Positions 7,254-45,768 of a DNA stretch of 46,537 nucleotides are shown here, one piece after another. The stretch is taken from positions 1-46,537 of the forward strand of contig JBHIDR010000003.1 in assembly GCA_046760225.1 (NCBI GenBank), given 5' to 3'. The notes under the pieces are model-generated. The model worked only from the letters and a program-made list of their open reading frames with translations, did no database searches and was not told where the DNA came from. The translations under genes were made by a program, and so were the position numbers. Origin of the DNA: Candidatus Aenigmatarchaeota archaeon (GTDB lineage Archaea; Aenigmatarchaeota; Aenigmatarchaeia; Aenigmatarchaeales; JACQIB01). Each line of letters starts with the position of its first letter. Positions within the stretch are counted from its first letter, which is position 1.

Positions 7254-7436
7254 ATGGCAAAGTGCAGCTTCTGCAAGATAAATGTTGAACAGGGCACAGG
7301 AAAGATGTTTGTGAGGAACGACGGCAAGATATTCTACTTTTGCGGTTCCAAGTGCCAGAAGAACATGCTCATGCTCAGAAGGGTCCCGGAAAGGCAGAAC
7401 TGGATAACAAAAAAGAAAAAGACCAAGAAAACCTAA
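7254..7436 (+). CDS. rpl24e: 50S ribosomal protein L24e
   Basis: CSFC..GTGKMFVRNDG..FCGSKC zinc motif. Confidence 0.96.
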   Translation: MAKCSFCKINVEQGTGKMFVRNDGKIFYFCGSKCQKNMLMLRRVPERQNWITKKKKTKKT

Positions 7437-8959
7437 AGCCTTTCCTCCAATAACTTCTCAGTAAGGGAGCGCTTCCTTTTCTTAGCTGTTTTTTTGTTTG
7501 GCTTTAGGCCTGCCTTTTTTAGGGCAATTTCCCAAGAACCGAATCTTTTTCTATAAAGATACTGGTTTGGTATGGACTTGTCTGTATTTAGTTCTCCTTT
7601 TAGTGGTGTTCTTCCGAGCTCTTCTGCTTTTTTCCTGAGGAAATCAAGGAGTTCTTGATCAGTGTATTTCTTTTTGTACACCCTCATATACGGTTCCAGG
7701 CCTGCTTCCTTTACTGCATTCTTCCAAGAGCCAAATCTCTTGTAATAAACACCTGGGTATGGCATAGAGTCATCCTTAATTACTTCTTCTATAGTTGGTG
7801 TTCTTCCGAGTTCTTCGGCTTTATCTTTAAGAAGCTCTAGCAGTTCCTCGTCTGTGTAGTCCTTTCGCTCACAATTGATATCCAGACCTGCTTCTTTTAA
7901 AGCCTTGTTAAAGGAGCCGAACCTTTGATTATAAGTATGTGCACTTGGTATGGACTTGTCCTTGTTCATTTCCATTGTGGTTGGTGGTCTTCCAAGCTCC
8001 TTTGCCTTTTCCTTAAGAGCTTTAATGAGCTCTTCGTTTGAGTATTCTCGGTATTTTGATTCTAATCCTGCTGCTTTTAAGGCACTGTTCCAGGAACCAA
8101 AATGTTTACAATAAGTATTTACACCTGGCATGTTTTTGTCTGTTTCTATTTCTCTTGCAGTTGGTGCTCTACCCAGATCATCTGCCTTATGCTGGAGAAC
8201 TTCAATAAGCTTCTCTTGTGTATAATTATGTATTTCTAAGCATGCTTCTTCTAGGGCATTGTTCCAAGAGCCAAATTTTCTCATATAGGTACTTGAACGT
8301 GGCATGGATTTGTCTCTGTCTATTTCTCTTTTACTCGGCGTCTTGCCCAGCTCCTTGGCTTTGTTTTGTAAGAGCTCGATGAGCTCTTGTTCCGAATATT
8401 CGTGTTTAAAATCTCTATTTAATTCTATACCTGCTGCTTCAAGGGCTTTGTTATAGGAACCAAACCATTTTATGTAGGTAGACGGATTTGGCATTGACTT
8501 GTCCGCTTTTATATCTTCTGTAGTCGGTGTCCTGCCCAGTTCTTCTGCCTTTTTCTGAAGATATTCTATGAGTTCTTCCTTTGAATAATATTCACGGTTC
8601 CTGTCCAAGCCTGCTTCTTTCAGGGCGTTGGTTAAGGAACCAAACCTGTACCGATAAGTAGTTGAAGATGGTATTGATTTGTCTGCAGTTATTTCTTTTT
8701 GGGTTGGTGTTCTACCCAGTTCTTTTGCTTTTTTCTTGAGAAGCTCTAGTAGTTCCTGATCTGAATAATATTCCTTATTAACATTCAAACCTGCTGCTTC
8801 CAGGGCCTTGTTATAAGAACCGAATGTTTTTGTGTAGATATATACAGAAGGTATGTCTTTGTCCGCGTTTACTTCTCTTCTAGTGGGTACTCTGCCTAAC
8901 TCTTCTGCCTTCTCTTGTAGTTTCTCGATAAGATAGTCATCAGTATATTTTTCACTCAT
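7433..8959 (-). CDS. Protein of 8 tandem ~60-aa homing-endonuclease-associated (HNH_repeat-like) repeats, no nuclease domain
   Basis: Eight copies of Y(S/T)xxELxxxLxxKAxELG(R/K)xPTxxExxxDKS(I/M)PxxxxYxxxFGS(W/Y/F)NxALxxAGL; ATG 8959 follows GGTGA; family name from recall. Confidence 0.85.
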   Translation of the reverse strand: MSEKYTDDYLIEKLQEKAEELGRVPTRREVNADKDIPSVYIYTKTFGSYNKALEAAGLNVNKEYYSDQELLELLKKKAKELGRTPTQKEITADKSIPSSTTYRYRFGSLTNALKEAGLDRNREYYSKEELIEYLQKKAEELGRTPTTEDIKADKSMPNPSTYIKWFGSYNKALEAAGIELNRDFKHEYSEQELIELLQNKAKELGKTPSKREIDRDKSMPRSSTYMRKFGSWNNALEEACLEIHNYTQEKLIEVLQHKADDLGRAPTAREIETDKNMPGVNTYCKHFGSWNSALKAAGLESKYREYSNEELIKALKEKAKELGRPPTTMEMNKDKSIPSAHTYNQRFGSFNKALKEAGLDINCERKDYTDEELLELLKDKAEELGRTPTIEEVIKDDSMPYPGVYYKRFGSWKNAVKEAGLEPYMRVYKKKYTDQELLDFLRKKAEELGRTPLKGELNTDKSIPNQYLYRKRFGSWEIALKKAGLKPNKKTAKKRKRSLTEKLLEERL

Positions 8960-19422: not shown

Positions 19423-22400
19423 ATGACCAAAAAAATCGACCCAAGGCTTATTCCCGAGGTCAACATAGGTACGGTTGGACACTGAGCAACTTGCGGGTTG
19501 CTTGGCTAAAAACGTGGACCACGGGAAATGCGTTGCATTAGATGAAGATATGTTTATTAATAATAAGCTAATTTCAGGACAGGAATTAATGGACTTAGCA
19601 AAATCTAAAGGGAATATTGTTTTTTCAAAGAAAAATGAATGGCTATACAACATTCCAAATCTTTATACTTATAGTCTTGATTCTGAATTACAAACTGTCA
19701 GAACGAAAGCACAAGTATTTATACAGAAATATGAAGGGCCCATTCTTAAAATGATTACAAAAAATGGTAAAAGTATAAAGGCAACTAAAGAACATCCTTT
19801 GCTAATAAATGAAGGCGGTAATTTAAAATGGAAAAAAATGAAAGAGATTAAAGTTGGGGATTATATTGCTGTTTCGAATTTGGGTACATTCCCTAGTAAA
19901 ATAAAACTTAAAAATAGTTATCTCAAGGAACTAAGAAAAAGGTATCCATTAGTTATGACAAATATTGATTATAACAAACTTAAAGAAAAGACGGGAAACT
20001 TCGTTAATTTCTCTATGTTAAATGAAAAGGAATTTAGTACTTTGCGTATTTTGGGTAATTTTTCTTTAAGAGAAATAGCAAAGGCGACAAATTTTTCTTA
20101 TTCATGGATTCAGAAGGCCCTAGGCCAAAAAAGGAAAACTACAAATAATGTTAAATTAGAACTATCAAAGTTTTTCAAAAGTAATAAACATAGAATAGTA
20201 AGACTTTCTAAAAACGAAATATTGGTTGGTTATAAATCTCGCCATTCTGGAAAAAATTATACTAAATTCAAAAACATAAAGATTATAGATCAGGATATAG
20301 TAAAATGGTTTGCTTTCTTGCACGCAGAAGGAAATACTCATTATAAAAGAATAGTAGTTGTTCAGAAAAATTATCCCGAATTATTAGAAGAGTTTGAAAA
20401 GATATCTAAAAGCATATTTGGAATTGAATCTAAAATCGCATTCGGAAATAATGATGTTAAAAGATGTGAATTATATTCAAAACCGTTTATTGAATATATA
20501 TGTTTAAGGTTTGGACTTAAGATTGGGGCATCAAAGAAATCGCCTATTTGTAACTGGATACTTTCTCTGCCACCAAACCTTCAAGCTTTATTTCTAAAAT
20601 ATTTTTTTGCTTTAGAGTGTGATGTAAGAAAAAATTCAATAAAAATAACTCAAATTAATAAAAGAAATATAAATATTATCTCTACTATCTTGCACAATTT
20701 TGGAATAGAACATCACCTAAAAGAGGGTGTAAGAAAGAATCGTAATATAGAATATAGTTTACGCATAGAAGGAAAGCACAACCTTAGAAGATTTATAGAA
20801 AAAATAGGTATTTATGATAAAAACAAATCGAGAAGAGTTAAAGCGTACCTAAAAACAATTAAGCCTACAAACCCACCATCATACTCACTTGTTCCGATAA
20901 ATCCGAACATCTTGATGGAACTTTCACAAATTTTACCTAATTTCACTCTTAAAGAAAACTATTACTATTATGCGAATGGAAAGATAACCAAAATTAGATT
21001 AAATAAGATAGTTAAGGATATCGCTTTATGGTTGAAAGAATCGGAGAAGCTTAAAGATAAGGGAGATTTATATACTATAGTTAAAAATTTTAAGATTCCT
21101 CAAACAACATTAGCAAGAAAAATCAATTCTTCAAAATCTATAGTTAATAAGATACTGAAAAATAAATACAAAAACAAAATTGTAAGGAGCAAGTTAAAAG
21201 ATACTATAAAACAGTTGGCAGAAGATAAAACTAAAAGAACTGAGATTATTTATCAAAACCTTAGTTTGTTAGCATCTCCTTTGATACGTTGGGATAAAGT
21301 AAATAGAATAGAACACTTGCATTATAACGACTATGTTGTTGATTTGTTTGTACCAAAGTATCATAACTTCGTAGGAGGATTTGGTGGTATAGTATGTCAT
21401 AACAGCACCCTTATAGAAGCAATTTCTGGCCGCTGGCCTGCCCTGCATTCTGAAGAGCTGAAAAGGGGAATCACAATAAAGCTCGGTTATGCTGATGCAA
21501 CAATATACAGGTGCCCGAAGTGTGAAAAGACGCTGAGCACAGACAAGTGCCTTGGCTGCATGGAAAAAGCAGAGCTGTTGCGCACAATCTCCTTTGTTGA
21601 TGCTCCTGGGCATGAGACACTCATGGCAACTGTGCTTGCAGGTGCCAGTTTGATGGATGGTGCACTGCTCATAATTGCTGCAAATGAGAAATGCCCTCAA
21701 CCGCAGACAGCCGAGCACCTCATGGCACTTGACATCAGTGGGATAAGAAATATCATAATAATCCAGAACAAGGTAGATCTTGTTGATGAGGAAAAAGCAA
21801 TGGAGAACTACAAGCAGATAAAGGAGTTTGTGAAAGGAACTGTTGCAGAGAACGCACCCATAATACCTGTTTCTGCGCAGCAGAAGATAAACATAGATTC
21901 TGTTCTTGAGGCAATACATAAAATCATGCCCACACCAGAAAGGAAGCCAGAAGCAAACCCAAAGATGCTGGTTGTGAGGAGCTTTGACATAAACAAGCCA
22001 GGTACAGAACCACCAAAGCTCAATGGTGGGGTTCTTGGTGGTGCAATAATAGAAGGAAAGCTTAAGAAAGGTGATGAAATAGAGGTTGCACCAGTAAAGA
22101 TAAAGGACAAATGGCGCAGCATCACAACAAAGATAAAGGGCCTGCAGAAGGCAGGCAAGAACCTTGATGAAGCAGGGCCAGGAGGACTGGTTGGGGTGAT
22201 GACAACACTTGACCCAAACCTCACAAAGGCTGACTATCTTGCAGGCAGTGTTGTTGGCCTGCCTGGCAATCTTCCCTCAATCTCAAACTCCCTGAGATTT
22301 GAAGCACATGTTTTCGAGGGAATACAGCCCATAAAGATGGGAGAGCTGCTCATGATAAACGTGGGTACATCCAGGACAGTTGGGGCTGTGGATTCAATCA

Positions 22401-22522
22401 AGAAAGGAATTGTTGAGACCAGCCTGAAGCTGCCTGTTGTTGTAAGTGCTGGTGAAAGGGCTGCAATAAGCAGGAGACTTGAGGACAGGTGGAGGCTAAT
22501 CGGCTGGGGAATTCTTAGGTAG
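19423..22522 (+). CDS. eif2g: Translation initiation factor aIF2 gamma; join(19423..19480,19512..22522), contains an intein; mature ~397 aa
   Basis: MTKKIDPRLIPEVNIGTVG-H-VDHGK/STL, HSEELKRGITIKLGYA, FVDAPGHE, QNKVD, RWRLIGWG. Confidence 0.95.
19481..19511 (+). other. 31-nt BHB-type mRNA intron in aIF2-gamma
   Basis: TTGG AC^A CTGAGCAAC TTGCGG GTTGCTTGG CTAA AA^A CGT: central helix TTGG/CTAA, 9-bp inner stem, in-frame TGA 19483-19485. Confidence 0.9.
19529..21403 (+). mobile_element. Intein (625 aa) with LAGLIDADG-type endonuclease in aIF2-gamma P-loop
   Basis: GK/CVALDE start, ATKEHPLL block B, FLHAEG motif, ...GIVCHN/S end; strongly AT-rich. Confidence 0.94.
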
Positions 22523-25002: not shown

Positions 25003-25653
25003 GCGGTGAGAAAGCATGACGACACTAAAACCTATAATAGAACAACAAGGTACAGTTTCAGAAGCAAAGGCTAGAATATTGGCGAACCTCAAGGCTGATG
25101 GAAGTACATGCAGAAGCGGTACGAACTATACAAAAAAATATGAGGTACGTGATGCCGAGCAACTTAATAGGTTTGCCAAAGACCTGAAACATGTATATGG
25201 GCTGAACATAAAGCGCATGCTTAACACATCAGGAATAACAGGAATGCCCATAGAAGCTGTATACCTTAGGTCCAAATTAGCATTTGAAGATTTGCAGAAA
25301 TTTGGACGCTTCAGGTCAGAAGACTGGAATGTACCTCAGCAGATAAAAAACTCTTCCAAGCAAGTTAAGGCCGCCTTTTTAATGGCCTTTTTTGATGACG
25401 AAGGATCTGTTATCAAATCGAGAAGGGAAATACGCCTTTACTCGATAAATATTGATGGCCTTAATGAAATAGCAAAGCTGCTTGAAGAGTTTGAAATAAA
25501 GTGCAGTATACGAAGTGGTTATGGAAAACGAAGAAATGTGTTTGCCATTATAATTCGTGGCGTAGAAAACCTTGAGAGGTTTTCAAAACATATAGGTTTT
25601 GGTGTTAAGACTAAAAAAAGAAAACTAAAAAGTATGCTTTCCACTGTGGCCAA
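25003..25653 (+). mobile_element. 651-nt relaxed-BHB tRNA intron at 35/36 encoding a LAGLIDADG endonuclease
   Basis: Central helix GGCT/GGCC, 3' bulge AA^A, long closing stem GCGGTG-A-GAAAGCATG / TATGCTTTC-CACTGT. Confidence 0.82.
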
Positions 25654-25684
25654 AGGCGAGCACGCTAAGTGCTTGTTGCGTTAG
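25016..25684 (+). CDS. Intron-encoded double-motif LAGLIDADG homing endonuclease
   Basis: ILANLKADG and FLMAFFDDEG motifs; SD GGTGAG; 214 aa if read from circular intron, 222 aa from precursor. Confidence 0.9.
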   Translation: MTTLKPIIEQQGTVSEAKARILANLKADGSTCRSGTNYTKKYEVRDAEQLNRFAKDLKHVYGLNIKRMLNTSGITGMPIEAVYLRSKLAFEDLQKFGRFRSEDWNVPQQIKNSSKQVKAAFLMAFFDDEGSVIKSRREIRLYSINIDGLNEIAKLLEEFEIKCSIRSGYGKRRNVFAIIIRGVENLERFSKHIGFGVKTKKRKLKSMLSTVAKGEHAKCLLR

Positions 25685-26830: not shown

Positions 26831-26938
26831 GCCCGGGTAGTATGTCTTGGTGTGGCATTTCACCCGAGAGCTAAAAGTGGTCTAGTATCTCGGCCTGTCG
26901 AGTCGAGGACCTGGGTTCAAATCCCAGCCCGGGCGCCA
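26831..26938 (+). tRNA. tRNA-Asp(GTC) with 32-nt D-arm intron (26844..26875, position 13/14)
   Basis: GCCCGGG/CCCGGGC acceptor, G73, CCA, loop CTGTCGA; intron TAGT AT^G TCTTGG..CCGAGA GCTA AA^A. Confidence 0.92.
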
Positions 26939-32735: not shown

Positions 32736-35209
32736 TAGACCAGATTGATTTCCAATTGCTTTCGCCAACAATGGTAAAGAAGATTGCAAAAGCAGAAATA
32801 ACAAGGCCCGAGCTTTATGACAATGACGGTTTCCCAATAGAGGGCGGAGTAATGGACCCGAGACTGGGCATAATAGACCCTGGGCTCAGGTGCAGGACAT
32901 GCGGACAGACAATAGGAAACTGTTTCGGCCACTTCGGTTATGTAGAGCTGGTAAGGCCGGTTATCCATGTACTGTACTCAAAACTGATTTACAGGATACT
33001 GAGAGTAATGTGCAATGAGTGCTCAAGGATAATCACCACATCAACAACAACAAGACCAAAGAAGTGCACGCACTGCGGTACTGAACAGAAGGCCATAAAG
33101 TTCCAGAAGCCCTACACATTCCTGGAAGATGAAAAAGCGCTGACAACAATGGAAGTCAGGGAGAGGCTGGAAAAAATACCTGACGAGGACCTTAAGCTTC
33201 TGGGCTTCAGGGGAGGAAGACCAGAATGGCTCATAATAACACTCATGCCTGTGCCGCCTGTAATAACCAGGCCATCAATAACCCTGGAAACAGGCGAAAG
33301 GTCAGAAGATGACCTGACGCACAAGCTGGTGGACATAATAAGAATCAACCAGCGACTAAGGGAAAACATTGACATAGGTGCGCCGGACTTCATAATAGAA
33401 GACCTGTGGGAACTGCTGCAGTACCATGTTGCAACTTTCTTTGACAACACCTTATCAGGAATACCTGCTGCAAGGCACAGGAGCGGAAGACCATTGAAAA
33501 CTCTGGCTGACAGGTTGAAATCAAAGGAAGGAAGGTTCAGGCAGAACCTTGCAGGAAAGAGGGTGAACTTCTCAGCAAGAACAGTAATATCACCTGATCC
33601 CTACATAAGCATCAATGAGGTGGGCATTCCGAGGTCCATAGTAAGGGAGCTCACAATCCCATTGAGTGTATGGGAACACAATGTGGAAAAGCTGAGGGAA
33701 ATCATTCTGAACGCGCCTGTATGGCCGTCTGCAAACTATGTAGTAAGGCCTGATGGCAAGAGGAAGAAGATAACAGAAGAAAACAAGGAAGAGGTCGCCC
33801 AGGAGATATCACCTGGCTATATCATTGAGAGGCATGTGAGGAACGGTGACATTGTGCTCTTCAACAGACAGCCCTCACTGCACAGGATGTCCATAATGGC
33901 CCACAGGGTGAGGGTGACACCATGGAGGACATTCACAATGAACCTGTGCGTGTGCCCGCCCTATAATGCTGATTTTGATGGAGACGAGATGAACCTGCAT
34001 GTGCTGCAGACAGAAGAGGCGCGCGCAGAAGCGCGGCTACTGATGAGCGTGCAGAACCACATAAGGAGCCCGAGGTTCGGAGGACCAATCATAGGATGCG
34101 AGCATGACCATGTTTCAGGAGCCTACCTGCTTACAAAGAAGGAAACCGAGCTCTCGAGGAAGGATGCCTTCTACCTGCTTTCCCAGATAGGGGTTGATGC
34201 AGAGCTACCGAGCAAAAAGAAAATATCCGGCAAGGAACTGTTCTCCATGCTCCTTCCGAAAGGACTTAACATGGAATTCAAGGCAAAGGTCTGCGGATGT
34301 GAAAAATGCATAAAGGGGACGTGCCCGAATGACGGTTATGTTGTAATAAGGAACGGAAAACTTGAAAGGGGTGTGATAGACAAGAAGGCAATAGGAAGGG
34401 AGGCAGGAAAGGTCATTGACAGGATTGAAAGGGAGTATGGTACAGAAGAGGCGCACAAGTTCATTGACAGGGTATCACTCCTTGGGATAATTTTCCTTGA
34501 GAAGCACGGATTCACAATAGGGCTTGATGATATTGACCTGAACATCAGCACACTGGAAAAAATAAAAAGGGAAATTGAAAAGGGAGTAGTTGGTGCCAAC
34601 CAGCTGATTGAGGATTATGCCAACAACAGGATCGAAGTCCTGCCAGGAAGGGATGCGAAAGGCAGTTTTGAAGCGCACACACTAAAGCTGCTTGCAAACC
34701 TGACAGACTCGATTGGAAAAATAGTTGCATCAGACCTTGTTGAAAACAGCGCTGTTGTCATGGCAAAATCCGGTGCCCGCGGCCACATAACACACCTTGC
34801 ACAGCTGAGCGGAATACTGGGACAGCAGCATGTGCTCGGTGAGAGAATACACAGGGGATTCAGGGGGAGGACGCTGTCGCACTTCAAAGCCGGGGACCTG
34901 ACCCCGATGGCGCACGGTTTTGTGGTGAGCGCATTCAAGCACGGACTAAATCCGTTTGAATTCTTTTTCAATGTGTTGAGCGGAAGGGAAGGCCTCATGG
35001 ACAAGTCACTGAGGACAAGGCACAGCGGTTATCTGGAAAGAAGGCTGATGAACGCGCTACAGGACCTGAAAGTGGAATATGACGGTACAATCAGGGACAA
35101 CAGGAAGGTCATAATCCAGTTCAAGCCAGGTGAGGACGGCATTGATCCAGCAAAATCAGACTGGGGAGCAATAGATGTTGATGAAATAATAAAGGGTGTT
35201 GCCAAATGA
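32732..35209 (+). CDS. rpoA1: RNA polymerase subunit A' (Rpo1N)
   Basis: CFGHFG, GKRVNFSARTVISPD, YNADFDGDEMN. Confidence 0.97.
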   Translation: MIDQIDFQLLSPTMVKKIAKAEITRPELYDNDGFPIEGGVMDPRLGIIDPGLRCRTCGQTIGNCFGHFGYVELVRPVIHVLYSKLIYRILRVMCNECSRIITTSTTTRPKKCTHCGTEQKAIKFQKPYTFLEDEKALTTMEVRERLEKIPDEDLKLLGFRGGRPEWLIITLMPVPPVITRPSITLETGERSEDDLTHKLVDIIRINQRLRENIDIGAPDFIIEDLWELLQYHVATFFDNTLSGIPAARHRSGRPLKTLADRLKSKEGRFRQNLAGKRVNFSARTVISPDPYISINEVGIPRSIVRELTIPLSVWEHNVEKLREIILNAPVWPSANYVVRPDGKRKKITEENKEEVAQEISPGYIIERHVRNGDIVLFNRQPSLHRMSIMAHRVRVTPWRTFTMNLCVCPPYNADFDGDEMNLHVLQTEEARAEARLLMSVQNHIRSPRFGGPIIGCEHDHVSGAYLLTKKETELSRKDAFYLLSQIGVDAELPSKKKISGKELFSMLLPKGLNMEFKAKVCGCEKCIKGTCPNDGYVVIRNGKLERGVIDKKAIGREAGKVIDRIEREYGTEEAHKFIDRVSLLGIIFLEKHGFTIGLDDIDLNISTLEKIKREIEKGVVGANQLIEDYANNRIEVLPGRDAKGSFEAHTLKLLANLTDSIGKIVASDLVENSAVVMAKSGARGHITHLAQLSGILGQQHVLGERIHRGFRGRTLSHFKAGDLTPMAHGFVVSAFKHGLNPFEFFFNVLSGREGLMDKSLRTRHSGYLERRLMNALQDLKVEYDGTIRDNRKVIIQFKPGEDGIDPAKSDWGAIDVDEIIKGVAK

Positions 35210-37758
35210 AAGTAAAGTCACTCAAAGAGCTGCCACCTAAGCTGCGGGAAGAAGCAAAGGAAAAGATGAAGGCATACAGATTAACTGCAGCGCAAAAGTC
35301 CAAGATCGAGAAAAAGATAATTGAAATGTACAACAAGAGCCTCTTTGAAGCAGGTGAAGCATTCGGCATGGTGGCTGCACAGAGCATATCTGAACCAGCT
35401 ACCCAGATGTGCGTTGACTATGATGAAAATGTGCTGACCAAGGATGCGGGTAGGATTGAAATAGTCAAGGTTGGTCATTTCATTGATCAAAATTTTGAAA
35501 GATTCGGATTCAAGAGGATAGGTGAGTATGAGGTCTGTGACCTGCCCAAACAGCAAAAGCTCTTTGTATTGAGCCTGAACCCAGAAGAGAAGATGGAATG
35601 GAGAAGGGTGATTGCGTGCAACAGGCACGAAAGCCCGGAAACCCTGATTAAAATAACAACAAGGTCTGGAAGGGAGATCACAGCAACAGACTTCCATTCC
35701 TTTGTAATAAGAAAGCACAACAAAATAGTTTCCATAGCTGGAAAGGAACTCAAGGTTGGGGACAGAATCCCTGCAATAAGGTATCTGCCTGAAAACTGCG
35801 CCAGCTTCGTAAACATAGGCGGTTTCCTCCCGCCCCAAATGAAAACCATCAGGGAAGAGGGGCGCATACGTTCTGTGCGAGGGCTGACGTCCCTGCCAGA
35901 GCAGATGACATTGGATGCTGCGTTTGGCTGGTTTATAGGCGCTTATTTGTCCGAGGGCCACTCCACAGGAAGCGAGCTTTGCATCTCCAATATTAACGAC
36001 GAATTCATATCAAATGTTAAGAATTTCTCAGAAGGCCTTAACCTTAATTATAAAGAATTCCTGCATCATAGAGGATTTGCACAAAGCCGTGACTTCAAAA
36101 TAAGGTCAACGCTTTTCTCCAATTTCATCGAAGCGGCATGCGGGACAGGTTCTGGAGAAAAGAAGGTTCCAGATTTCGCTTACAGCGCTGATGAGAGATT
36201 TGTTGCAAGCTTGTTGAAGGGTTACTTCGATGGAGACGGTAATATCAGCGTGAAAAGGAAGATAATCAGGGCATCCTCAAACTCAAAGGAACTGATAGAT
36301 GGAATTGCACTGCTATTAACAAGGTTCGGAATATTCGCCCATAAGACCAAGGACAAGCAATTCGGCCTGCTTATTCCTTATAAATACGCACCGATATTCT
36401 TGTCTAAAATCGGTTCTGACATACCTGAGAAGGGTAAAAGGCTGAAAAGGTTGGCCGAGTTGTCGAAAAGGTTTTGGGATGATTATTCTCAAGACTTTAC
36501 AGACATGATTGGCGGTTTTGATGATGTACTGTACCAGGTTGCAAAGAAACTAAAATATCCGACCAGGTACATCAATAATTTTACCAAGCGTCAAAAAATA
36601 GGCAGGACAGCTCTTCACCGCTACATAAGACTTTTTGAAAGGCTAGCAAAAACAAAAGGTGTTGATATCGGAGGAGAACTCCAAATTTTAAAGCGGATGG
36701 CCAATTCCGATGTGGTTTGGGACGAGATAGCCAAGATAAGGCGTATAAAGCCTTCTTCGAGATATGTTTATGATTTTTCTGTGGAAGGGCTCAAAACCTT
36801 CACAACATTCGATGGGATTGTAACGCACAATACAATGAGAACATACCATGTTGCAGGAGCAGCACAGATAGAGGTGACGCTCGGCCTTCCAAGGATAGTG
36901 GAGATATTTGATGCAAGAAGGAGCCCGAAAACTCCCACCATGACTGTTTATCTAAAGAAGGCCTACAACACAAAGGACAGGGCCTACAAGATTGCTGCTG
37001 ATATCAGGGAAGTCAAAATGAATGATGTTGCTTCTTCATCTTCAATAGACCTTGTAAACGGTCAGATTGAAGTGATGATTGACCTGAAGGAGATGAGGGG
37101 CGCTGGCCTGAGCATGTCCAGGATAGAAAGCGTGCTGAAGGAATCATTGAAGGACGTTGATGTAAGGTCGAGAAAGGGAAGCTTCGTCATCAAACCCAAG
37201 GGAGACTATACTATAAAGGACATACAGAAGTTGAAGAAGAAAGTCCTTGACATGCACCTCAAAGGCCTGAAGGGCGTGTCGCAGGCTGTCATAAACCAGA
37301 GGGAGGGGGACTGGATCATAACCACTCTTGGCAGCAACTTTGCAAAGGTGCTCGGGGTGAAAGGAGTGAACCCTGCAAGGACAATGACAAACAACATCCA
37401 TGAAGTACAGAAGGTGCTCGGGGTCGAGGCTGCGAGAAACGCAATAATCAATGAAGCTGTAAACACGCTAAAGGACCAGGGCCTGGATGTCGATGTCAGG
37501 CACATCATGCTGGTTGCAGATGTCATGGTGGCGGACGGCACAATAAAGGCAATCGGAAGGTATGGGATTGCAGGAGCAAAGGGCTCGGTGCTCGCAAGGG
37601 CGAACTTCGAAGAGACAATCAAGCACCTTACCAAGGCTGCTGTGACTGCTGAGAGTGATAAGCTGGAAAGCATTGTGGAGAACGTTATGATAAACCAGGT
37701 TGTCCCTGCTGGAACAGGCATGTTCGACCTGATTTTCAGACCGCCACAAAAAAAGTAA
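35206..37758 (+). CDS. rpoA2: RNA polymerase subunit A'' (Rpo1C) containing an intein
   Basis: AAQSISEPATQM/TMRTYH, VTLGLPR, GVEAARN, RANFEET. Confidence 0.96.
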   Translation: MKVKSLKELPPKLREEAKEKMKAYRLTAAQKSKIEKKIIEMYNKSLFEAGEAFGMVAAQSISEPATQMCVDYDENVLTKDAGRIEIVKVGHFIDQNFERFGFKRIGEYEVCDLPKQQKLFVLSLNPEEKMEWRRVIACNRHESPETLIKITTRSGREITATDFHSFVIRKHNKIVSIAGKELKVGDRIPAIRYLPENCASFVNIGGFLPPQMKTIREEGRIRSVRGLTSLPEQMTLDAAFGWFIGAYLSEGHSTGSELCISNINDEFISNVKNFSEGLNLNYKEFLHHRGFAQSRDFKIRSTLFSNFIEAACGTGSGEKKVPDFAYSADERFVASLLKGYFDGDGNISVKRKIIRASSNSKELIDGIALLLTRFGIFAHKTKDKQFGLLIPYKYAPIFLSKIGSDIPEKGKRLKRLAELSKRFWDDYSQDFTDMIGGFDDVLYQVAKKLKYPTRYINNFTKRQKIGRTALHRYIRLFERLAKTKGVDIGGELQILKRMANSDVVWDEIAKIRRIKPSSRYVYDFSVEGLKTFTTFDGIVTHNTMRTYHVAGAAQIEVTLGLPRIVEIFDARRSPKTPTMTVYLKKAYNTKDRAYKIAADIREVKMNDVASSSSIDLVNGQIEVMIDLKEMRGAGLSMSRIESVLKESLKDVDVRSRKGSFVIKPKGDYTIKDIQKLKKKVLDMHLKGLKGVSQAVINQREGDWIITTLGSNFAKVLGVKGVNPARTMTNNIHEVQKVLGVEAARNAIINEAVNTLKDQGLDVDVRHIMLVADVMVADGTIKAIGRYGIAGAKGSVLARANFEETIKHLTKAAVTAESDKLESIVENVMINQVVPAGTGMFDLIFRPPQKK
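35410..36831 (+). mobile_element. Intein (474 aa) with LAGLIDADG endonuclease in RpoA''
   Basis: QM/CVDYDE start, ATDFHSF block B, GAYLSEG and GYFDGDG motifs, VTHN/T end. Confidence 0.95.
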
Positions 37759-39708: not shown

Positions 39709-41259
39709 ATGGCAGAGGAGATGTTCTGGGCTGACCAGATGGCAAGGAAGGTAATCAAGGAAAGAGGAGAGAAGAGCAAGTATGTGGTAGCTGCAGGTAT
39801 AACACCATCTGGCACAATCCATATAGGAAATTTCAGGGAAATGATAACAGTTGAACTTGTTGCCCGTGCACTAAAGTCTGCAGGCAAGCAAGTAAGGTTC
39901 ATCTATTCCTGGGACAACTATGACAGGATTAGGAAAATTCCTGCAAATGTTCCAAAAAGAGAAGAATTAGAAAAGTATATGGGACAGCCTGTAGTTGATG
40001 TGCCTGATACATTTGGATGCCACAAGAGTTATGCAGAACATATGGAGAAAGATGTAGCAGATGCTCTTCCTGTAGTTGGTATAATGCCTGAGTTCATAAG
40101 TCAGAGCAAGATGTACAGGGACTGCGTTTATGCTGAAGAAATAAAGACATGCATGCTTGCAAAAGAGAAAATCAGGGAGGTACTTAACAAGTTCAGAAAA
40201 GAGCCTTTGCCTGAAACATGGTTCCCTCTTCATATTTACTGTGAAAAATGCAAGAAGGATGAAGGAAGGGTAACAAGCTATGATAATGAATATGCTGTTG
40301 AATATGAGTGTACCTGTGGTCATAAGGGCAAAGTGAACTTCAAGGAAAGGGGAATAGTGAAACTTCCTTGGAGAGTTGACTGGCCAATGAGATGGCACTT
40401 TGAGAAAGTTGATTTTGAGCCGGGTGGAAAAGACCATTCTGCACCAGGTGGTTCATGGGATACAGGATCATTAATAATAAAGGTAGTTTTCAATGAAGAG
40501 CCTCCAGTATACCAGATGTATGACTTTGTAATTCCAAAGGGAGGAGGTGTAAAGTTCTCAAAGTCCCTCGGAAATGTCTTGAAGCTAACAGACGTGCTTG
40601 AAATATATCTGCCTGAAATAATCAGATTCATGTTCGCTGGAACAAAGCCGGTAAAGGAGTTCTCTATACCAATGGATGAGGACATCTTCAAACTTTATGA
40701 AGACTTCTTCAAGGTCGAGAGGATTTATTATGGAAAGGAAGATTCCTCCCGCGCAGCGCACTGGAAAAGGGTGTACGAGATGTCTGTTCCAACAGAACCT
40801 TTAAAGGAAGTGCCTATCCAGCCATCATTCAAGCACTGTGTGGAGCTTATCCATATTTACAGAAAACCAGAAGAAGCAGTCAAAAACATAAAGGAAAAAA
40901 TGGATAAGGAAGGTAGGAAGAGATACCTTGCAATGCTAGTTTGTGCAAAGAACTGGATTGACAAGTACGCACCGGAAGAATACAAATTCACTGTGAACGA
41001 AAAGGTGCCCGATGTCTCCCTCATGGATGCACAGAAATCTGCAGTAAGGGAACTCGGTGCAAGGCTGGAGGAAGCAAAAGACGAAGCTGAGATGGTAAAT
41101 ATCTTCAATGAGCTTACCAAGAAGCATGGTCTTACAACAGGGGAATTCTTCAAGGCATGCTACCTGATTCTCTTGAGCAAGGAAAGGGGGCCTAGATTGG
41201 CACCGTTCATAATGGCAATAGGCAAAGAAAGGGTTGCAAAGCTGTTCAAATCAGTTTAG
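39709..41259 (+). CDS. lysS: Lysine--tRNA ligase, class I
   Basis: GITPSGTIHIGNFRE, KLPWRVDWPMRW, EPGGKDH, KFSKSLGN, GPRLAPF. Confidence 0.96.
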   Translation: MAEEMFWADQMARKVIKERGEKSKYVVAAGITPSGTIHIGNFREMITVELVARALKSAGKQVRFIYSWDNYDRIRKIPANVPKREELEKYMGQPVVDVPDTFGCHKSYAEHMEKDVADALPVVGIMPEFISQSKMYRDCVYAEEIKTCMLAKEKIREVLNKFRKEPLPETWFPLHIYCEKCKKDEGRVTSYDNEYAVEYECTCGHKGKVNFKERGIVKLPWRVDWPMRWHFEKVDFEPGGKDHSAPGGSWDTGSLIIKVVFNEEPPVYQMYDFVIPKGGGVKFSKSLGNVLKLTDVLEIYLPEIIRFMFAGTKPVKEFSIPMDEDIFKLYEDFFKVERIYYGKEDSSRAAHWKRVYEMSVPTEPLKEVPIQPSFKHCVELIHIYRKPEEAVKNIKEKMDKEGRKRYLAMLVCAKNWIDKYAPEEYKFTVNEKVPDVSLMDAQKSAVRELGARLEEAKDEAEMVNIFNELTKKHGLTTGEFFKACYLILLSKERGPRLAPFIMAIGKERVAKLFKSV

Positions 41260-41986
41260 CGGCCGATTCTCCTGTCCCTGTTCCTGTACCACCTGAGTAT
41301 CTTATTGAACTCCCTCCTACTGAAATCAGGCCAGAGCGTCTTTGTGAAGTATATCTCTGCATAGGCTGCCTGATAAAGCAGGAAGTTGCTCAGCCTGTGC
41401 TCGCCTCCTGTCCTTATTATGAGATCAACCGGCTCGTTCACCAGAAGGAACTTATTAAATGTATCCTCTGCAAGGGGCACGGTCTTGATTCCCTTTGAAA
41501 CAAGCTTTTTGGCTGAGTTGATTATCTCGAACTGGCTTCCGTAAGCAAGAAGTATGTTCAGCACACCCTGAGTATAGTTCCTGGTAGCGTTCATAACATC
41601 CTTGGCAGCCTGCCTCACGTCCTTCCTCCAGAGAGCAGAATTCCCGACTATTTTAATTCTCAGGTCCCGTTTCCTCATTCTCTTGTCTTTCAGAAAGCCC
41701 TTGAACTCCTTGTTATAAATCCCCCAGAGCTTGTCAACCTCTTTCTTGCTCCTATTCAGGTTCTCAGTAGAAAGCGCGTAAACACTGACCACCTTTATGT
41801 TGGGATCGCCTGCGCACCACTCAGCAACATCCTTGAGCTTCTGCACACCCTTTACATGGCCCCACCATACAGGCTTTCTGTGCTTTCGGGCATAACGCCT
41901 GTCTCCGGTTAGTATTCAAACTAAATACCGTCAGGTATTATTGCCAGATGAAGGTTAGCTTTTCTGCCAGTTACGTCATCTGTGAT
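41256..41986 (-). CDS. uppS: Polyprenyl (undecaprenyl) diphosphate synthase; complement join(41256..41902,41926..41986)
   Basis: LHLAIIPDG-N-RRYA restored on removing 23 nt; YALSTEN, DLIIRTGGEHRLSNF, WPDF, RRIGR; start tentatively ATC 41986 after GGAGGTGA. Confidence 0.9.
41903..41925 (-). other. 23-nt BHB-type mRNA intron in uppS
   Basis: Minus strand CCTG ACGG TA^T TTAGT TTGAAT ACTAA CCGG AG^A CAGG; in-frame TAG inside. Confidence 0.9.
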
Positions 41987-42945
41987 GCCATCACCTCCTG
42001 TACCTTTAAAGAGAAAAACTGCCTTATGAATTTTTCTATTTCCTCTTTGCGATAAATAATAAGCACATAGTTCACCGTTTTTGTACCATTTCTGAAGCCC
42101 TTATCTGTATAAATCCCAGATACTTTGATTCCATTATCATGGAATATATGCGCACATTCCTTTAATAACCTTTTGTTATGCTGCTTAATTCGTATATAAG
42201 GCTGCTTATTACCACCAATATGAATTGTGCCGTCTGCATCAAATAGTCCAGATAAAAACAATTTTTTGAGAAAATTAATTTTGATTATAGATGGCATACA
42301 CGTTTTGTTCTTTTTGCTACCTACTGGCATGCCACAAACTTTGGTTAAAAAGAGGTGTATAACTTTAGATCTTCCAATTAGTCTGTAAAAGTTTTTCTCT
42401 TTGAAAATCGGTGGGCTATAATTAAAAAGTTCTTTAAATATTTTTCTTAAAAAAATCAAATGAGCTATATTATCACCAGTTATTCTTATTTCAGCATTGT
42501 AAGTCGAGCCGTTGCTGATTAAGTTTTTCGGATTGGCTAAGTGACCGTCGCCCATTATGTAGCCAAGCAGATACGCTAACCGAGGTGTTAGAAATTTAGG
42601 AAGTGTATATTGCCTAGAGTTCGTGCAGCCAAACCAAATGGCTTTATCAAAGAGCTCATCTTTATCTGCACCTATAAATTTAACAAGCTTTAAGGCGTGA
42701 TAAATTGGTATACCAACATCACGCTTGCTCTCACCTATCCAGTAATTCAACCTTTTTACATCAACATTAAGAAATTGTGCCATCTCCTTTCTCTTACAGT
42801 TTGCTGCATTTCGCAGAAATTCTCTCATGCCATAAAGTCTTATAAAATCATTTCCTTTCGTTCCTTGTTCATTTGTATATAGCTTGTCTAAATAGCGAGG
42901 AAACTTCATGTTTGGTTCGTGAGGAATCGTAGCTACGTTACGCAT
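41971..42945 (-). CDS. Free-standing double-motif LAGLIDADG endonuclease with N-terminal HTH
   Basis: AYLLGYIMGDG and FLSGLFDADG; KEMAQFLNVDVKRLNYW HTH-like; no intein splice residues; AT-rich. Confidence 0.88.
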   Translation of the reverse strand: MRNVATIPHEPNMKFPRYLDKLYTNEQGTKGNDFIRLYGMREFLRNAANCKRKEMAQFLNVDVKRLNYWIGESKRDVGIPIYHALKLVKFIGADKDELFDKAIWFGCTNSRQYTLPKFLTPRLAYLLGYIMGDGHLANPKNLISNGSTYNAEIRITGDNIAHLIFLRKIFKELFNYSPPIFKEKNFYRLIGRSKVIHLFLTKVCGMPVGSKKNKTCMPSIIKINFLKKLFLSGLFDADGTIHIGGNKQPYIRIKQHNKRLLKECAHIFHDNGIKVSGIYTDKGFRNGTKTVNYVLIIYRKEEIEKFIRQFFSLKVQEVMASQMT

Positions 42946-42995
42946 AATTTTTATATGCGGACATTAAATATAAAGTTATCGAAAAGGTGACTCAA

Positions 42996-43214
42996 ATGAA
43001 GAAAGTATTCGAGATAATTGATGAGATAAAGGATGAGCACAAGAAGATTGCAGAGGCATGGGATGAGAAGAAAGAGATAAGCCAGAGCCTCATGATAGGA
43101 TGGATTGACAAGAACGTGAAGCTCATGCTGGAACTAGGCAAAAAAATCGAGGAGCTTCAGGAAAGGCTTGATACGCTGCAAGCAGAAGGCAAGAAGAAAG
43201 GACTGTTCGGCTGA
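42996..43214 (+). CDS. Small coiled-coil hypothetical protein
   Basis: ATG after AGGTGA; heptad pattern; host-like codon use. Confidence 0.7.
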   Translation: MKKVFEIIDEIKDEHKKIAEAWDEKKEISQSLMIGWIDKNVKLMLELGKKIEELQERLDTLQAEGKKKGLFG

Positions 43215-43218
43215 TTGT

Positions 43219-43701
43219 CTAGAACACATCAACCTCGTCCATCATGTAATCCATAATGGACTCGTTGTCCCTATCAAACCTAAATGTGGCTCTTAGCCTC
43301 TTGTTCTGTAAAACCACAGGAATCCAGTGTTTGTCGTCCTTCCACATCTTCTCAAAGGGAAGCTTGTCCGTATCTGTCCATACTGTACTCATTTCCTCTG
43401 ACTCCTTTGGTTCACCTTCCCATCTGTCAATAAAGAACACATGAACCTTCTGGTCCCATTTCTTTTCCTTGGGCGCAAATGGAAAATAGAACGTGATCTC
43501 TGCCATCTTCTTGAGGTCACTTGGGTCTACCTTGACGCTTGTTTCCTCAAGCAATTCCCTTACAGCTGCCTCCTCTATTGTCTCATTTTCTCCAACTTTT
43601 CCACCAAAGCCATTGAACTTGCCTTCCCCGAAGCCGCGCTTCTTCATTCCTAGAAGTATCTGGTTCTCCTTGACCAAAAAGCACAGTGTTGCATCTCTCA
43701 A
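43219..43701 (-). CDS. Nudix hydrolase, MTH1/8-oxo-dGTP diphosphatase-like
   Basis: KKRGFGEGKFNGFGGKV..ETIEEAAVRELLEET Nudix box, ESEEM, MWKDD. Confidence 0.92.
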   Translation of the reverse strand: MRDATLCFLVKENQILLGMKKRGFGEGKFNGFGGKVGENETIEEAAVRELLEETSVKVDPSDLKKMAEITFYFPFAPKEKKWDQKVHVFFIDRWEGEPKESEEMSTVWTDTDKLPFEKMWKDDKHWIPVVLQNKRLRATFRFDRDNESIMDYMMDEVDVF

Positions 43702-43711
43702 TCCATCCCCC

Positions 43712-43927
43712 CTATCGAATGCCGTGTCTTTTGAGGTCTTCTTCTGTTATTATAGGGCACATATTATAAAAAACTGAGCCTAGCACTTTTCGCGATGGGT
43801 AGCGTGGGTAGCTCATCCTTATTTCCCTTGCATCCTGTATCCCTTTCTCAATATCATGAATATCCATTTCTTTTAGCTCATCGGGGCTCTTCCCCAACAA
43901 TTCTGCTGTCATCTCATAGGGCTTCAT
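43712..43927 (-). CDS. Small hypothetical protein
   Basis: 71-aa ORF packed co-directionally between neighbours. Confidence 0.55.
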   Translation of the reverse strand: MKPYEMTAELLGKSPDELKEMDIHDIEKGIQDAREIRMSYPRYPSRKVLGSVFYNMCPIITEEDLKRHGIR

Positions 43928-43931
43928 AATT

Positions 43932-44786
43932 TCACTTGCCTCTGATTTTTTTCAGTACTGGTGGCATCTTTACCAAACTAGGAGTTTTTGTTTCTTTCAA
44001 CCAGATATAAAGTATTGTAAAGTAGGTAATCCTAATAAAGAGATAAATTACCAAGGTGAAAAAGAGGTAAATCATAATTAGCCCTATGTAAACTGTCAAA
44101 GCAAGATATGGATTTACAGCAAATAAGAAGAACATTATGAGAAAGGAAACAAAAAACCATATCGCTGCTCCTATTGTGATGGCCGCTTTGGAAAGTGGCT
44201 CAATGACGAATTCACCTATCAGTGCTTCTGGAACAGCATTCAAGAGCTTGGGAACGTCTTTCCTGAGGGCGTCCCATACGCTCTGGTCCTTTATCACCAT
44301 CGCAGGCAATGTGAACTTGTATACAATGCTCCAGCTGTGTTCCAGAGTGAATCCTAGCAAATCTTTGATAAAGCTCTTGTCCTTCTTCAGAAAGTAGACA
44401 AGCAAGGAAACAACGAACCCCAAAACAGTGAGCGTAATCACGTCCTTAAAGTCTTTGGCTGCTACACGAAGAGCAGACATGAATGAGACAGGCTTCTTCT
44501 TATATATTCTATAAATAATCCAGCTATGCGCGGTACTGAAAAAGGTATGGGTCAACAAGACTACGAAAACAGCAACTATAAGGGGTGGTAAGACAACGCT
44601 CACAAACCGGCTTTGTGTCAGAAATCTCTCTCCGTAGATATATGGAGCCATGACAATGCTAAACAGCAAAAATAGTACTATCAAGTCAACTACTGCCATA
44701 CATAGGGGTGAGCAAAGGGCAACTGGTCTTTCTTTGCCTATCTTAAGAGTTTCCTTCAAAGCCTGAAAACTACGGCCAAGCACCAT
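43932..44786 (-). CDS. Multi-pass membrane protein
   Basis: About six TM segments; start set at ATG 44786 because the longer ORF overlaps tRNA-Leu. Confidence 0.75.
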   Translation of the reverse strand: MVLGRSFQALKETLKIGKERPVALCSPLCMAVVDLIVLFLLFSIVMAPYIYGERFLTQSRFVSVVLPPLIVAVFVVLLTHTFFSTAHSWIIYRIYKKKPVSFMSALRVAAKDFKDVITLTVLGFVVSLLVYFLKKDKSFIKDLLGFTLEHSWSIVYKFTLPAMVIKDQSVWDALRKDVPKLLNAVPEALIGEFVIEPLSKAAITIGAAIWFFVSFLIMFFLFAVNPYLALTVYIGLIMIYLFFTLVIYLFIRITYFTILYIWLKETKTPSLVKMPPVLKKIRGK

Positions 44787-44919
44787 AATATAATTCTGTA
44801 AATTCTTTTTATAAAGATTCTCTTTATAAAGAATCTGGTGCGGGAGGAGAGAGTTTCGCTTCCACCTTCGTGCACCGAAGGCGGTGCTTCGAACTCTCGA
44901 AGGGACTAACCCACAAGGC

Positions 44920-45768
44920 ATCTGAAAACTTAGATTTTATGAATGTCCTAAGCAACTTATCTAAAATATCCATCTTTCTGGAACCTACCCAATTACCTTT
45001 AACTACAATAGTCTCATCTGAAAAGCCTATAATCTTCTTGAATTTTCTTATATACTCTTCTTTATGTATAGCTATTTCATGTCTATGTGTTCTAAGTATA
45101 CAATCTACTCCAAGATCTCTATGCATTTTGTATATGTCTAGCAATACTTCATCATTGTAGCAAACTGCAACTAAGCTCCTACTCCCTTTATTTAAAAGCA
45201 CAGATCCTTCATCGTCCCAAAATGCTCTTAAAAATGCAATCTTATTTTGCTTGCTTCCTTTCAAAATTTCTCGAGGCACTGTTGTTGATGCTTTTGGATC
45301 TGATGTTGTATAAGCTGGCGTGTAACTTAAAAGGTCCTCTATTATTAGTTTCGAACGGAAAGTTGCAGTAATACAGTTCCACTTATCGACATATATGTAA
45401 GGTTTACTTAGACCATAGACCTTTTTGAAATCCCCTGTAAACTGTCGTATAAGACCTTTAGATTTATTTCCATAGCTTATTCTATATCTTTTAGGCATTA
45501 CATTTCCGTCAAACAAGCAATGGGCTATAATCCTTGTTTTCTCTATACTTAGACCTTTCTGAATCACTGGCCTTTCCTTTATACAAGTTCCTTTTAAATA
45601 CCTTTTAGCTGTATTTAATGAAATGTTTGTTTTTTCTGCAATCTCTTGCATTGTATGTTTTTTATTTCTAAGTCTAAACATTTCCTTTACTTTTTTCTTT
45701 GGCAAAGGTTTTGCGTATTTCCTTGCAAATGCAATTTGATTTTTCTTCATTGCTGTCATTTTCTCCAT
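44920..45768 (-). CDS. Intron-encoded HTH + double-motif LAGLIDADG endonuclease (283 aa from circular intron; 314 aa to 44824 on precursor)
   Basis: TMQEIAEKTNISLNTAKRYL HTH, IIAHCLFDG and FLRAFWDDEG motifs. Confidence 0.9.

Follow-up and report, generated by a model that had tools for sequence, protein, structure and literature searches.

Among archaeal protein-coding genes, cbf5 of Crenarchaeota has been described as having a bulge-helix-bulge (BHB) intron in its pre-mRNA (Watanabe 2002; Yoshinari 2006; Yokobori 2009, PMC2738675). By 2020 no other had been reported from a coding region, and none elsewhere in archaeal mRNA before the case in a 5' untranslated region (UTR) that was added in that year's paper (PMC7714728). 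In the portions of PMC5829648 and PMC12397907 that concern us, the pre-mRNA citations lead to the cbf5 papers only, and in the corresponding portion of a 2026 review of non-canonical splicing (PMC13149111) BHB appears only for pre-tRNA, with neither 'cbf5' nor 'archaeal mRNA' occurring there. We found no published uppS intron and no BHB intron in a coding gene of DPANN archaea in a search of the literature outside subscription journals and supplements. Regarding mobility, collaborative homing is described as an arrangement in which an intron prevents self-cleavage while an endonuclease gives mobility to an intron that has no open reading frame (ORF) of its own (PMC6083498). Here we describe a 23-nucleotide (nt) insert in uppS, the gene of a cis-prenyltransferase (UppS) that makes a lipid carrier, on the minus strand of contig JBHIDR010000003.1 of a Candidatus Aenigmatarchaeota archaeon (genome G000 below). 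The stretch analysed, called the window throughout, is 46,537 nt long. We consider it likely that the insert is an archaeal BHB intron within the coding sequence of the only uppS of this genome, lying next to a free-standing LAGLIDADG endonuclease gene.

The insert runs from 41925 to 41903 (minus strand) and interrupts, in phase 1, the codon for the Asn in the DGNRR motif of UppS. Ahead of it the exon-1 frame reads GRKANLHLAIIPDG up to 41927, and the A at 41926 is the first base of the Asn codon; behind it come AC (41902-41901) and AGG CGT TAT, the start of a frame that reads RRYARKH. A TAG at 41923..41921 lies inside the insert in the exon-1 frame. Taking out the 23 nt restores PDGNRRY, and the spliced reading frame would encode a 235-residue UppS. 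Exon 1 (41926..41986) has 61 nt, that is, 20 codons plus one base (ITDDVTGRKANLHLAIIPDG followed by A), and begins with ATC; exon 2 (41256..41902) supplies the last two Asn bases, 214 open codons and a stop at 41258..41256. ORF calling yields only a 196-aa fragment (41256..41846) and nothing for exon 1, because the frame of exon 1 holds no canonical start (ATG, GTG or TTG). The uppS of G001, a genome of the same genus, is uninterrupted across the site (MTDDVEGNSRGLHIAIIPDGNRRY, HIAIIPDGNRRYARRH, MTDDVEGNSRGLHIAIIPDGNRRYARRH).

The assignment of 41903..41925 as a BHB mini-intron is based on its geometry and on the DGNRR motif restored by its removal. From its 5' end, the predicted intron consists of a bulge base (41925), an inner hairpin (41924-41909, with a 5-bp stem and a 6-nt loop), the intron strand of the central helix (CCGG, 41908-41905) and the bulge AG (41904-41903). 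The exonic 5' arm (41928..41941) provides the outer helix (41941-41932) and the central ACGG (41931-41928), followed by the bulge bases 41927-41926, and the exonic 3' arm (41892..41902) provides the bulge base A (41902) and the outer helix (41901-41892). The first-pass annotation, made from the letters of this DNA, had proposed a 23-nt insert in the DGNRR motif, of phase 1, not a multiple of 3 and with an in-frame stop, whose flanks join to PDGNRRY and whose inner (TTAGT/ACTAA), central (CGG/CCG plus A.G) and outer arms form helices. The sequence agrees with every one of these elements. Its remark that the intron lies within about 60 nt of the start is correct for the homologous start codon, given the 61-nt exon 1, but that codon is ATC.

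Contigs from four DNA sequencing runs of one study carry the insert with neither an indel nor a joint, so both the insert and the ATC are real DNA. One contig (X3 record 6) spans 41846-43033 with 0 differences, and another (X4 record 9) spans 41000-42965 with 2 substitutions, both elsewhere. Two of the four runs may be the source of this DNA, so the runs are not independent; X3 and X4 come from other samples of the study. A search for sequencing runs that contain positions 40000-44000 of the window found DNA runs and none of RNA.

The translated exon 2 (41900..41259) matches the Prenyltransf family (PF01255) from position 6 to the last position (219) of the profile, with E 1.6e-63 and a score of 214.6 bits where the cut-off is 27; the missing start of the profile corresponds exactly to the few residues encoded by exon 1. 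The best PDB relatives of the exon-2 product are undecaprenyl pyrophosphate synthases (UPPS). Its residue 2 aligns with residue 30 of Escherichia coli UPPS (1jp3), and the insert therefore falls in the codon equivalent to residue 28, two past the motif aspartate. We take this aspartate to be the catalytic residue. The motif is complete only with the insert taken out, and exon 2 alone lacks the aspartate. The genome (851,505 bases in 83 contigs, 83% complete) has a single PF01255 match, so that the second intact uppS, which had been named beforehand as an observation that would speak against an intron, was not found by PF01255 in this 83%-complete assembly. Exon 2 gave ratios of nonsynonymous to synonymous differences (pN/pS) of 0.24-0.39 against four relatives, with synonymous sites saturated, and exon 1 retains 13 of the 20 residues of G001. 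Judging from these comparisons, the uppS exons are under purifying selection.

At the 5' end of the gene, ATC (41986..41984) occupies the position of the ATG of MTDDV in genomes G001, G031 and G020, and all four DNA runs show ATC in place of ATG. A Shine-Dalgarno-like (SD-like) sequence, GGAGGTGA (41991..41998, minus strand), lies 4 nt upstream of the ATC; of 16 genes in the window, 6 have an SD-like core, and the best of these sites is no better than that of uppS. Near-cognate initiation at ATC is plausible on this sequence context. We also considered a large second intron that would hold the endonuclease ORF described below and supply an ATG, and set it aside: a strong SD stands directly before the ATC, and orthologous loci start in the ordinary way.

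At the RNA level, the 66 nt from 41950 to 41885 fold with -19.2 kcal/mol, compared with -10.97 +/- 2.45 kcal/mol for 200 shuffled sequences (z = -3.36, with none as low). The ten positions of the outer helix (41941-41932 with 41901-41892) comprise eight Watson-Crick pairs, one G.U pair and one A.C mismatch, and the central helix (ACGG with CCGG) comprises an A.G and three Watson-Crick pairs, with bulges UA|U and AG|A. The canonical BHB rule, derived from the tRNA 37/38 case and in agreement with PMC5829648, sets the cut after the second base of the 3-nt bulge that follows the 4-bp helix on each strand. Applied here, the rule puts the cuts after 41926 and 41903, which is the junction demanded by protein homology.

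Inserts are also present in the uppS of relatives. Including G000, we found them in at least 13 genomes, at three sites within about 20 codons: in the 12 further genomes, six lie at the same nucleotide, five 9 nt upstream and one further downstream. At the Asn site they measure 13, 16, 18, 21, 23, 33 and 40 nt, at the upstream site 29, 30, 30, 31 and 31 nt. Every insert shifts the frame or carries stop codons. Within the order (42 genomes), uppS was detected in 40 of the 41 genomes sampled. The junction was read in 30 loci, 13 other matches having long upstream open frames; 26 of the 30 read through DGNRR and four are interrupted (L002, L004, L016 and L017). Besides the 23-nt insert of G000 at the Asn site, these comprise a 13-nt insert at the same nucleotide in G004, which belongs to the same family, a 21-nt insert with two in-frame stops at the same nucleotide in G026, and, in G023, a 31-nt insert at the upstream site, which separates an Ile codon from a Pro codon. 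The class has 371 genomes, 308 to 310 of them with a uppS match, and about 150 matches were listed in each of two listings. Among the matches listed, nine candidates from the first listing were chosen for the shortest upstream open frames; six of them are interrupted and three are intact. Inserts of 16 and 18 nt occupy the Asn site in G118 and G292, respectively, and three genomes have theirs at the upstream site, namely G265 (29 nt) and the pair G267 and G268 (30 nt, in frame and with four stops). The sixth is G125 (L037), whose frame-breaking insert of 26 nt, counted by hand, contains a 6-bp hairpin and defines the third site, about 16 codons past DGNRR and after GHKYGA. The second listing gave five more candidates, of which G210 is interrupted (31 nt, upstream site) and four are intact. 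Finally, G371 and G372, both labelled Candidatus Micrarchaeota and reached through the endonuclease, have inserts of 40 and 33 nt at the Asn site.

As an observation in its own right, uppS genes of two divergent types, with roughly 50-73% and 30-45% identity to that of G000, are scattered over the families, and some genomes (e.g. G020 and G040) carry two copies. This distribution hints at paralogy or horizontal exchange.

We then scored the BHB geometry with junctions set by protein alignment and one register for all inserts, in a set of 11 inserts (L050 and G125 stand outside it). The exon and intron 4-mers, each ending 2 nt ahead of its cut, match at three or four of the four positions in all 11 inserts, giving 40 pairs of a possible 44. 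A scan of registers gave a mean of 3.64 pairs for the canonical one, 3.09 for the two that have three pairs in common with it and about 1.2 elsewhere. Shuffled introns gave 17.2 +/- 3.0 pairs, and 0 of 5000 shuffles reached 40. When folding is left unconstrained, the central helix reappears in 9 of the 11 inserts, with pair probabilities of about 0.6-1.0, and L016, L033 and L034 fold to an exact 3-4-3 structure. The 13-nt insert of G004 has no inner helix h' and is for this reason classed as a relaxed, hBH-type form.

Both helices covary. In the central helix, exon ACGG is found with intron CCGG, CCGT or ACGT (five loci) and exon ATGG with CCAT (two loci). In the outer helix, G000 and G292 combine Pro CCT with Arg AGG, and G004, G371 and G372 combine Pro CCG with Arg CGG. 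A complete 4-bp outer helix is present in five of the seven genes interrupted at the Asn site, compared with 3 of 29 uninterrupted ones; complementarity over 6 nt separates the two groups weakly (5, 5, 3, 3, 5, 5 and 5 in interrupted genes, against a mean of 4.0). The exon bases that make up the arms are strongly conserved as well. G004, G371 and G372 (the last two being L045 and L046) have 27-29 of 30 exon nt around the junction in common, with UppS proteins of very different groups (62% against 33% identity to G000). Uninterrupted genes compared across groups, in 252 pairs, share 20.0 of 30 on average and 25 at most, none reaching 27. On each side of the junction the three agree at 13-15 of 15 nt and in the next windows out at 3-10 of 15, the likeness thus dropping to background within 15 nt. 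The endonucleases of the three have no more than about 50% identity; the events are therefore old, and we read the shared exon arms as selection on RNA structure, possibly together with old co-conversion.

Several observations weigh against an excised BHB intron. The minimum-energy fold of G000 uses CGGU/ACCG, one base off; cut canonically in that shifted register, the transcript would be 21 nt shorter and out of frame. Owing to the A.G in the helix and to this competing fold, we call the G000 motif relaxed. Two of the scored inserts, L035 (pair probability 0.01) and L032 (about 0.1), do not fold with a central helix, and L050 pairs at only two of the four positions by hand count. The relatives are not independent of one another, so the counts given above overstate significance and are not to be read as probabilities. 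The missing canonical start could mean weak expression or early decay of this uppS copy. Besides, the case for excision is drawn from DNA sequence and its comparison among genomes.

The enzymes that splicing would need are encoded in the genome. There are two genes for splicing endonuclease subunits (PF01974), about 0.8 kb apart on contig C2 (about 22.8-24.4 kb). The catalytic-like subunit, of 202 aa, matches chain 3iey_A of Nanoarchaeum equitans (E 6.4e-35) and keeps the histidine of REHTKWV and the preceding loop, and the 163-aa subunit aligns with EndA of Methanocaldococcus jannaschii and has Gly in the place of that histidine. By its sequence, the pair has the pattern of an (alpha-beta)2 enzyme; (alpha-beta)2 and epsilon2 endonucleases are the types that cut non-canonical motifs (PMC5829648). 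The RtcB ligase (PF01139) is also encoded, and its gene is itself split. In rtcB (contig C35, about 1540-1680; L043/L044), a frame-breaking insert of roughly 32 nt, a rough hand estimate, lies between the GGIG and DINCGVR codons, with two TAG codons on reading through; a further in-frame stretch of 30 nt with a hairpin, between HEGY and GFPIGG, may be a second intron or a protein loop. The gene of aIF5B contains a 22-nt insert (14523..14544, plus strand) in the GHVDHGKT (P-loop) codons, and its removal keeps LGHVDHGKT. The central helix of this insert, TTGG/CCAA, pairs at 4/4 positions, with bulges AC|A and AA|A and a cut in phase 1 of the His codon; the upstream neighbour of aIF5B is a radical-SAM gene, and no endonuclease ORF lies directly upstream. 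The first-pass annotation had counted two other mRNA introns besides that of uppS, of which we identified one, the aIF5B insert. In a comparative sense, its statement that such introns here go beyond translation genes holds.

According to these results, the BHB intron reading of uppS is the one we favour, and it agrees with junction homology, cut geometry, recurrence with covariation, the presence of the splicing enzymes and the lack of a second uppS. What we observe is the anatomy of the insert, its recurrence and covariation, the selection on the exons and the enzymes; from these we infer that the uppS pre-mRNA is cut and joined. In the pre-mRNA, the flanking exon bases would pair as the outer helix and exon ACGG would pair with intron CCGG, leaving the two 3-nt bulges. 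A two-subunit tRNA-splicing endonuclease of alpha-beta type would cut both bulges, and RtcB would join the exons. The join would rebuild the Asn codon of DGNRR and, with it, the frame of the 235-residue enzyme. Since the intron breaks a codon of the catalytic motif, splicing would be obligatory for uppS function.

The gene next to uppS, which the first-pass annotation had passed over, encodes a free-standing double-motif LAGLIDADG protein of 324 aa (41971..42945, minus strand). It overlaps the 5' end of uppS, its stop lying inside codons 5-6. The ORF matches PF14528 (E 2.5e-15, 57 bits against a cut-off of 22.5) and phrog_4645, annotated as 'endonuclease' (E 2.2e-11), and has no sequence relative in the PDB at E <= 0.01. 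Its orthologues in G004, G371 and G372 are 47-51% identical, with the motifs IMGDGHL and FDADG, and both aspartates are invariant in the four proteins. All four members of this family, including that of G000, lie directly upstream of a uppS that is split at the same nucleotide. The nearest relatives of the endonuclease are labelled Candidatus Micrarchaeota, and three distant matches (27-31% identity) have no uppS nearby. In G267 and G268, a different ORF, with LAGLIDADG_3 and HTH_50 domains, stands ahead of the uppS interrupted at the upstream site. G001, of the same genus as G000, has neither intron nor endonuclease, and the same is true of other genomes of the taxonomic family; the neighbouring genes differ, however.

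To put these neighbourhoods in numbers, we tallied the ten loci interrupted at the two main sites, found without reference to the endonuclease, and 27 uninterrupted loci with a readable upstream region (L051-L054 stand outside the tally). The scan covered the largest one or two upstream ORFs per locus, in 30 of 47 and 15 of 20 candidates. Four of the ten interrupted loci (L002, L004, L033 and L034) have, immediately upstream and in the same orientation, an ORF whose LAGLIDADG_3 match exceeds the Pfam cut-off; none of the 27 uninterrupted ones has. Across the genomes, LAGLIDADG_3 has 35 matches in G000 and one weak match in G001.

The endonuclease adjoining uppS probably explains the presence of the intron. 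More specifically, and with sequence and gene neighbourhood as our evidence, we lean towards the view that the intron is kept and spread by this upstream endonuclease through collaborative homing. The endonuclease would cut uninterrupted uppS at highly conserved codons, and the intron, by splitting the target site, would shield its own chromosome. The endonuclease gene and the intron would then be copied together into cut alleles. A more tentative generalisation, which we hold with less conviction, is that mobile cassettes of Micrarchaeota-like archaea may have two parts, a free-standing LAGLIDADG endonuclease and an enzyme-spliced BHB micro-intron. The endonuclease would target the most conserved codons of an essential gene, such as those of DGNRR in uppS, and the intron would be an immunity patch that splits the target and that the tRNA-splicing machinery renders harmless.

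Other neighbourhoods count against a role of the endonuclease. Four interrupted loci (G118, G292, G265 and G210; L032, L035, L036 and L050) have ordinary neighbours. The upstream ORFs of G026 (L017) and G023 (L016) are weakly or not supported as LAGLIDADG proteins. That of G026 gives a Pfam E of 0.0066 (below the cut-off), blastp E values of 7e-4 to 2e-3 and an hhalign E of 0.019 with a probability of 2.4%. For the ORF shared by G023 and G034, a search for LAGLIDADG returned only HTH_3 in Pfam, a probability of 0.5% in hhalign against the clear family and helix-turn-helix (HTH) hits only in PHROGs and NCBIfam; its AlphaFold model, with a mean predicted local distance difference test (pLDDT) score of 37.4, was too poor for a fold search, and this type of ORF was left out of the strict tally. 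G034 (L011) has an HTH ORF of the G023 type (269-345 aa, 61% identity) beside an intact uppS, the exon sequence at the upstream site being TTGGTTCCT in G034 and TTGATACCC in G023.

These cases are the ground for the alternative that survives best, although we think it unlikely: that the intron is spliced and the neighbouring endonuclease is unrelated to it, occupying a tolerated intergenic spot or serving another target. Four of the ten interrupted loci having no endonuclease nearby, the G023-type ORF without an intron in G034, and the 35 LAGLIDADG_3 matches of G000, which occur in many contexts and in several cases adjoin intact genes, would all fit it. It has more difficulty with the four orthologues, which keep the same placement before a split at the same nucleotide in highly divergent uppS genes, with the accompaniment of the upstream site by a different LAGLIDADG and HTH_50 ORF in G267 and G268, and with the 0 of 27 uninterrupted loci having a Pfam-supported LAGLIDADG ORF upstream. 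Moreover, when homing elements decay, the endonuclease is expected to go first and the intron later.

A dead gene is improbable. Under this alternative the insert would be a repair scar or a small insertion that endonuclease activity left behind and that is never removed from the RNA, leaving a pseudogene or a truncated product. It can draw on the lack of a canonical start in exon 1, on the relaxed BHB of G000 and on the 83% completeness of the genome, in which another uppS copy could hide. Against it, exon 2 is open over 214 codons with pN/pS values of 0.24-0.39, and uppS is present in nearly the whole order sample (40/41). The inserts recur in thirteen genomes and, unlike a scar, obey the BHB rule with compensatory changes at two of the three sites; in the exonic arms, synonymous positions are conserved only where the gene is interrupted. 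A truncated product, made from exon 2 alone, would be without the DGNRR aspartate.

Translational bypass, of the kind that takes ribosomes across a 50-nt gap in gene 60 of phage T4, is less probable still. A short untranslated insert beside an endonuclease gene does resemble the mobA-gene 60 cassette (bioRxiv 10.1101/2022.08.31.505936), and L004 and L046 have a GGA directly before AAC in the exon-2 frame that could be the landing site for a GGA take-off codon. By inspection, only two of the seven inserts at the Asn site provide a landing codon that fits. For G000, hopping from GGT to the sole nearby GGA would give DGDRR, since the Asn codon is split between the exons, and bypass leaves the 4-bp exon-intron helix and its covariation unexplained. 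An assembly or sequencing artefact is scarcely credible, given the insert in the contigs of four DNA runs and homologous inserts in 12 other genomes.

Regarding other elements of the same kinds, the window has two more free-standing LAGLIDADG ORFs, at 25016-25684 (plus strand) and 44824-45768 (minus strand), one preceding an Ogg-type DNA glycosylase gene and one having an HTH domain. Downstream of 19 free-standing endonuclease ORFs of G000 we saw, by eye, no simple pattern that would make an endonuclease ORF followed by an interrupted gene a rule of the genome; several of the 19 lie in an apparent rRNA region or run into tRNA-like sequence, and one stands before an intact gene resembling uracil-DNA glycosylase. 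Five LAGLIDADG_3 matches are clustered on contig C8, apparently an rRNA region. The genes of aIF2-gamma and of an RNA polymerase subunit with Rpb1 domain 5 (19475-22522 and 35206-37758 of the window, plus strand) each contain a LAGLIDADG intein (Intein_splicing and LAGLIDADG_3). Three ORFs on the minus strand (7433-8968, 11381-12283 and 12302-12730) consist almost wholly of PF18780, the 'homing endonuclease associated repeat', in up to 8 copies (E 1.8e-166). In the 46.5 kb, ARAGORN found no tRNA and Rfam found one (26862-26935, 31.1 bits, just above threshold), and several endonuclease ORFs of the genome end in peptides that resemble translated tRNA. Intron-split tRNA genes may have been missed by the tRNA search.

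If the BHB intron of uppS is spliced, splicing would be an obligatory step before a core enzyme of membrane and glycan-carrier synthesis, and not before an RNA-processing or translation factor, and the uppS site would be a recurrent hot spot with three positions in at least 13 genomes. Split uppS genes are easily mis-annotated as pseudogenes or truncated ORFs, as the 196-aa fragment illustrates. The tie to the endonuclease would offer a testable mechanism for the origin and persistence of introns in archaeal protein genes and bears on the rarity of mRNA introns. If the cassette proposal were true, it would describe a general entry route of introns into archaeal protein genes that makes these genes dependent on EndA and RtcB, rtcB itself being split.

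Among known systems, I-DmoI is a monomeric double-motif LAGLIDADG endonuclease encoded in an archaeal rRNA intron with a BHB; here, in contrast, the ORF lies outside the intron, upstream of uppS, and overlaps its first codons. With cbf5, the uppS case would share a short BHB intron in coding sequence that is gained and lost among relatives. The cbf5 intron is removed by the tRNA-splicing endonuclease and is tied to hetero-oligomeric enzymes of broad specificity (PMC7714728). The two differ in the host gene, a lipid-carrier synthase as opposed to an RNA-modification enzyme, and in lineage; the uppS inserts are much shorter (13-40 nt), occupy three sites and have a homing endonuclease as neighbour, and their splicing is inferred. 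HVO_1309 of Haloferax volcanii is an mRNA substrate of the archaeal splicing endonuclease beyond tRNA and rRNA, with its intron in the 5' UTR (PMC7714728), whereas the putative intron of uppS interrupts a codon of the catalytic motif.

For the neighbourhood, the closest likeness is to F-CphI and psbA of cyanophage S-PM2 (Zeng 2009), where a free-standing endonuclease stands beside a gene with an intron at the presumed target; there the intron is a phage-borne, self-splicing group I intron, and F-CphI is a nuclease of the Endo VII family (PMC6083498). The uppS case would instead combine an enzyme-spliced BHB micro-intron with a LAGLIDADG protein on a cellular archaeal chromosome, the two being linked by co-occurrence. 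T4 mobA-gene 60 is similar in having a short non-coding insert in an essential gene beside an endonuclease gene (bioRxiv 10.1101/2022.08.31.505936), but that insert is skipped by the ribosome, and five of the seven uppS inserts at the Asn site are without matching codons. Set beside these systems, the uppS locus appears to be new in the class of gene and in the lineage that host the putative BHB intron, in its recurrence at a hot spot and in its coupling to a free-standing homing endonuclease.

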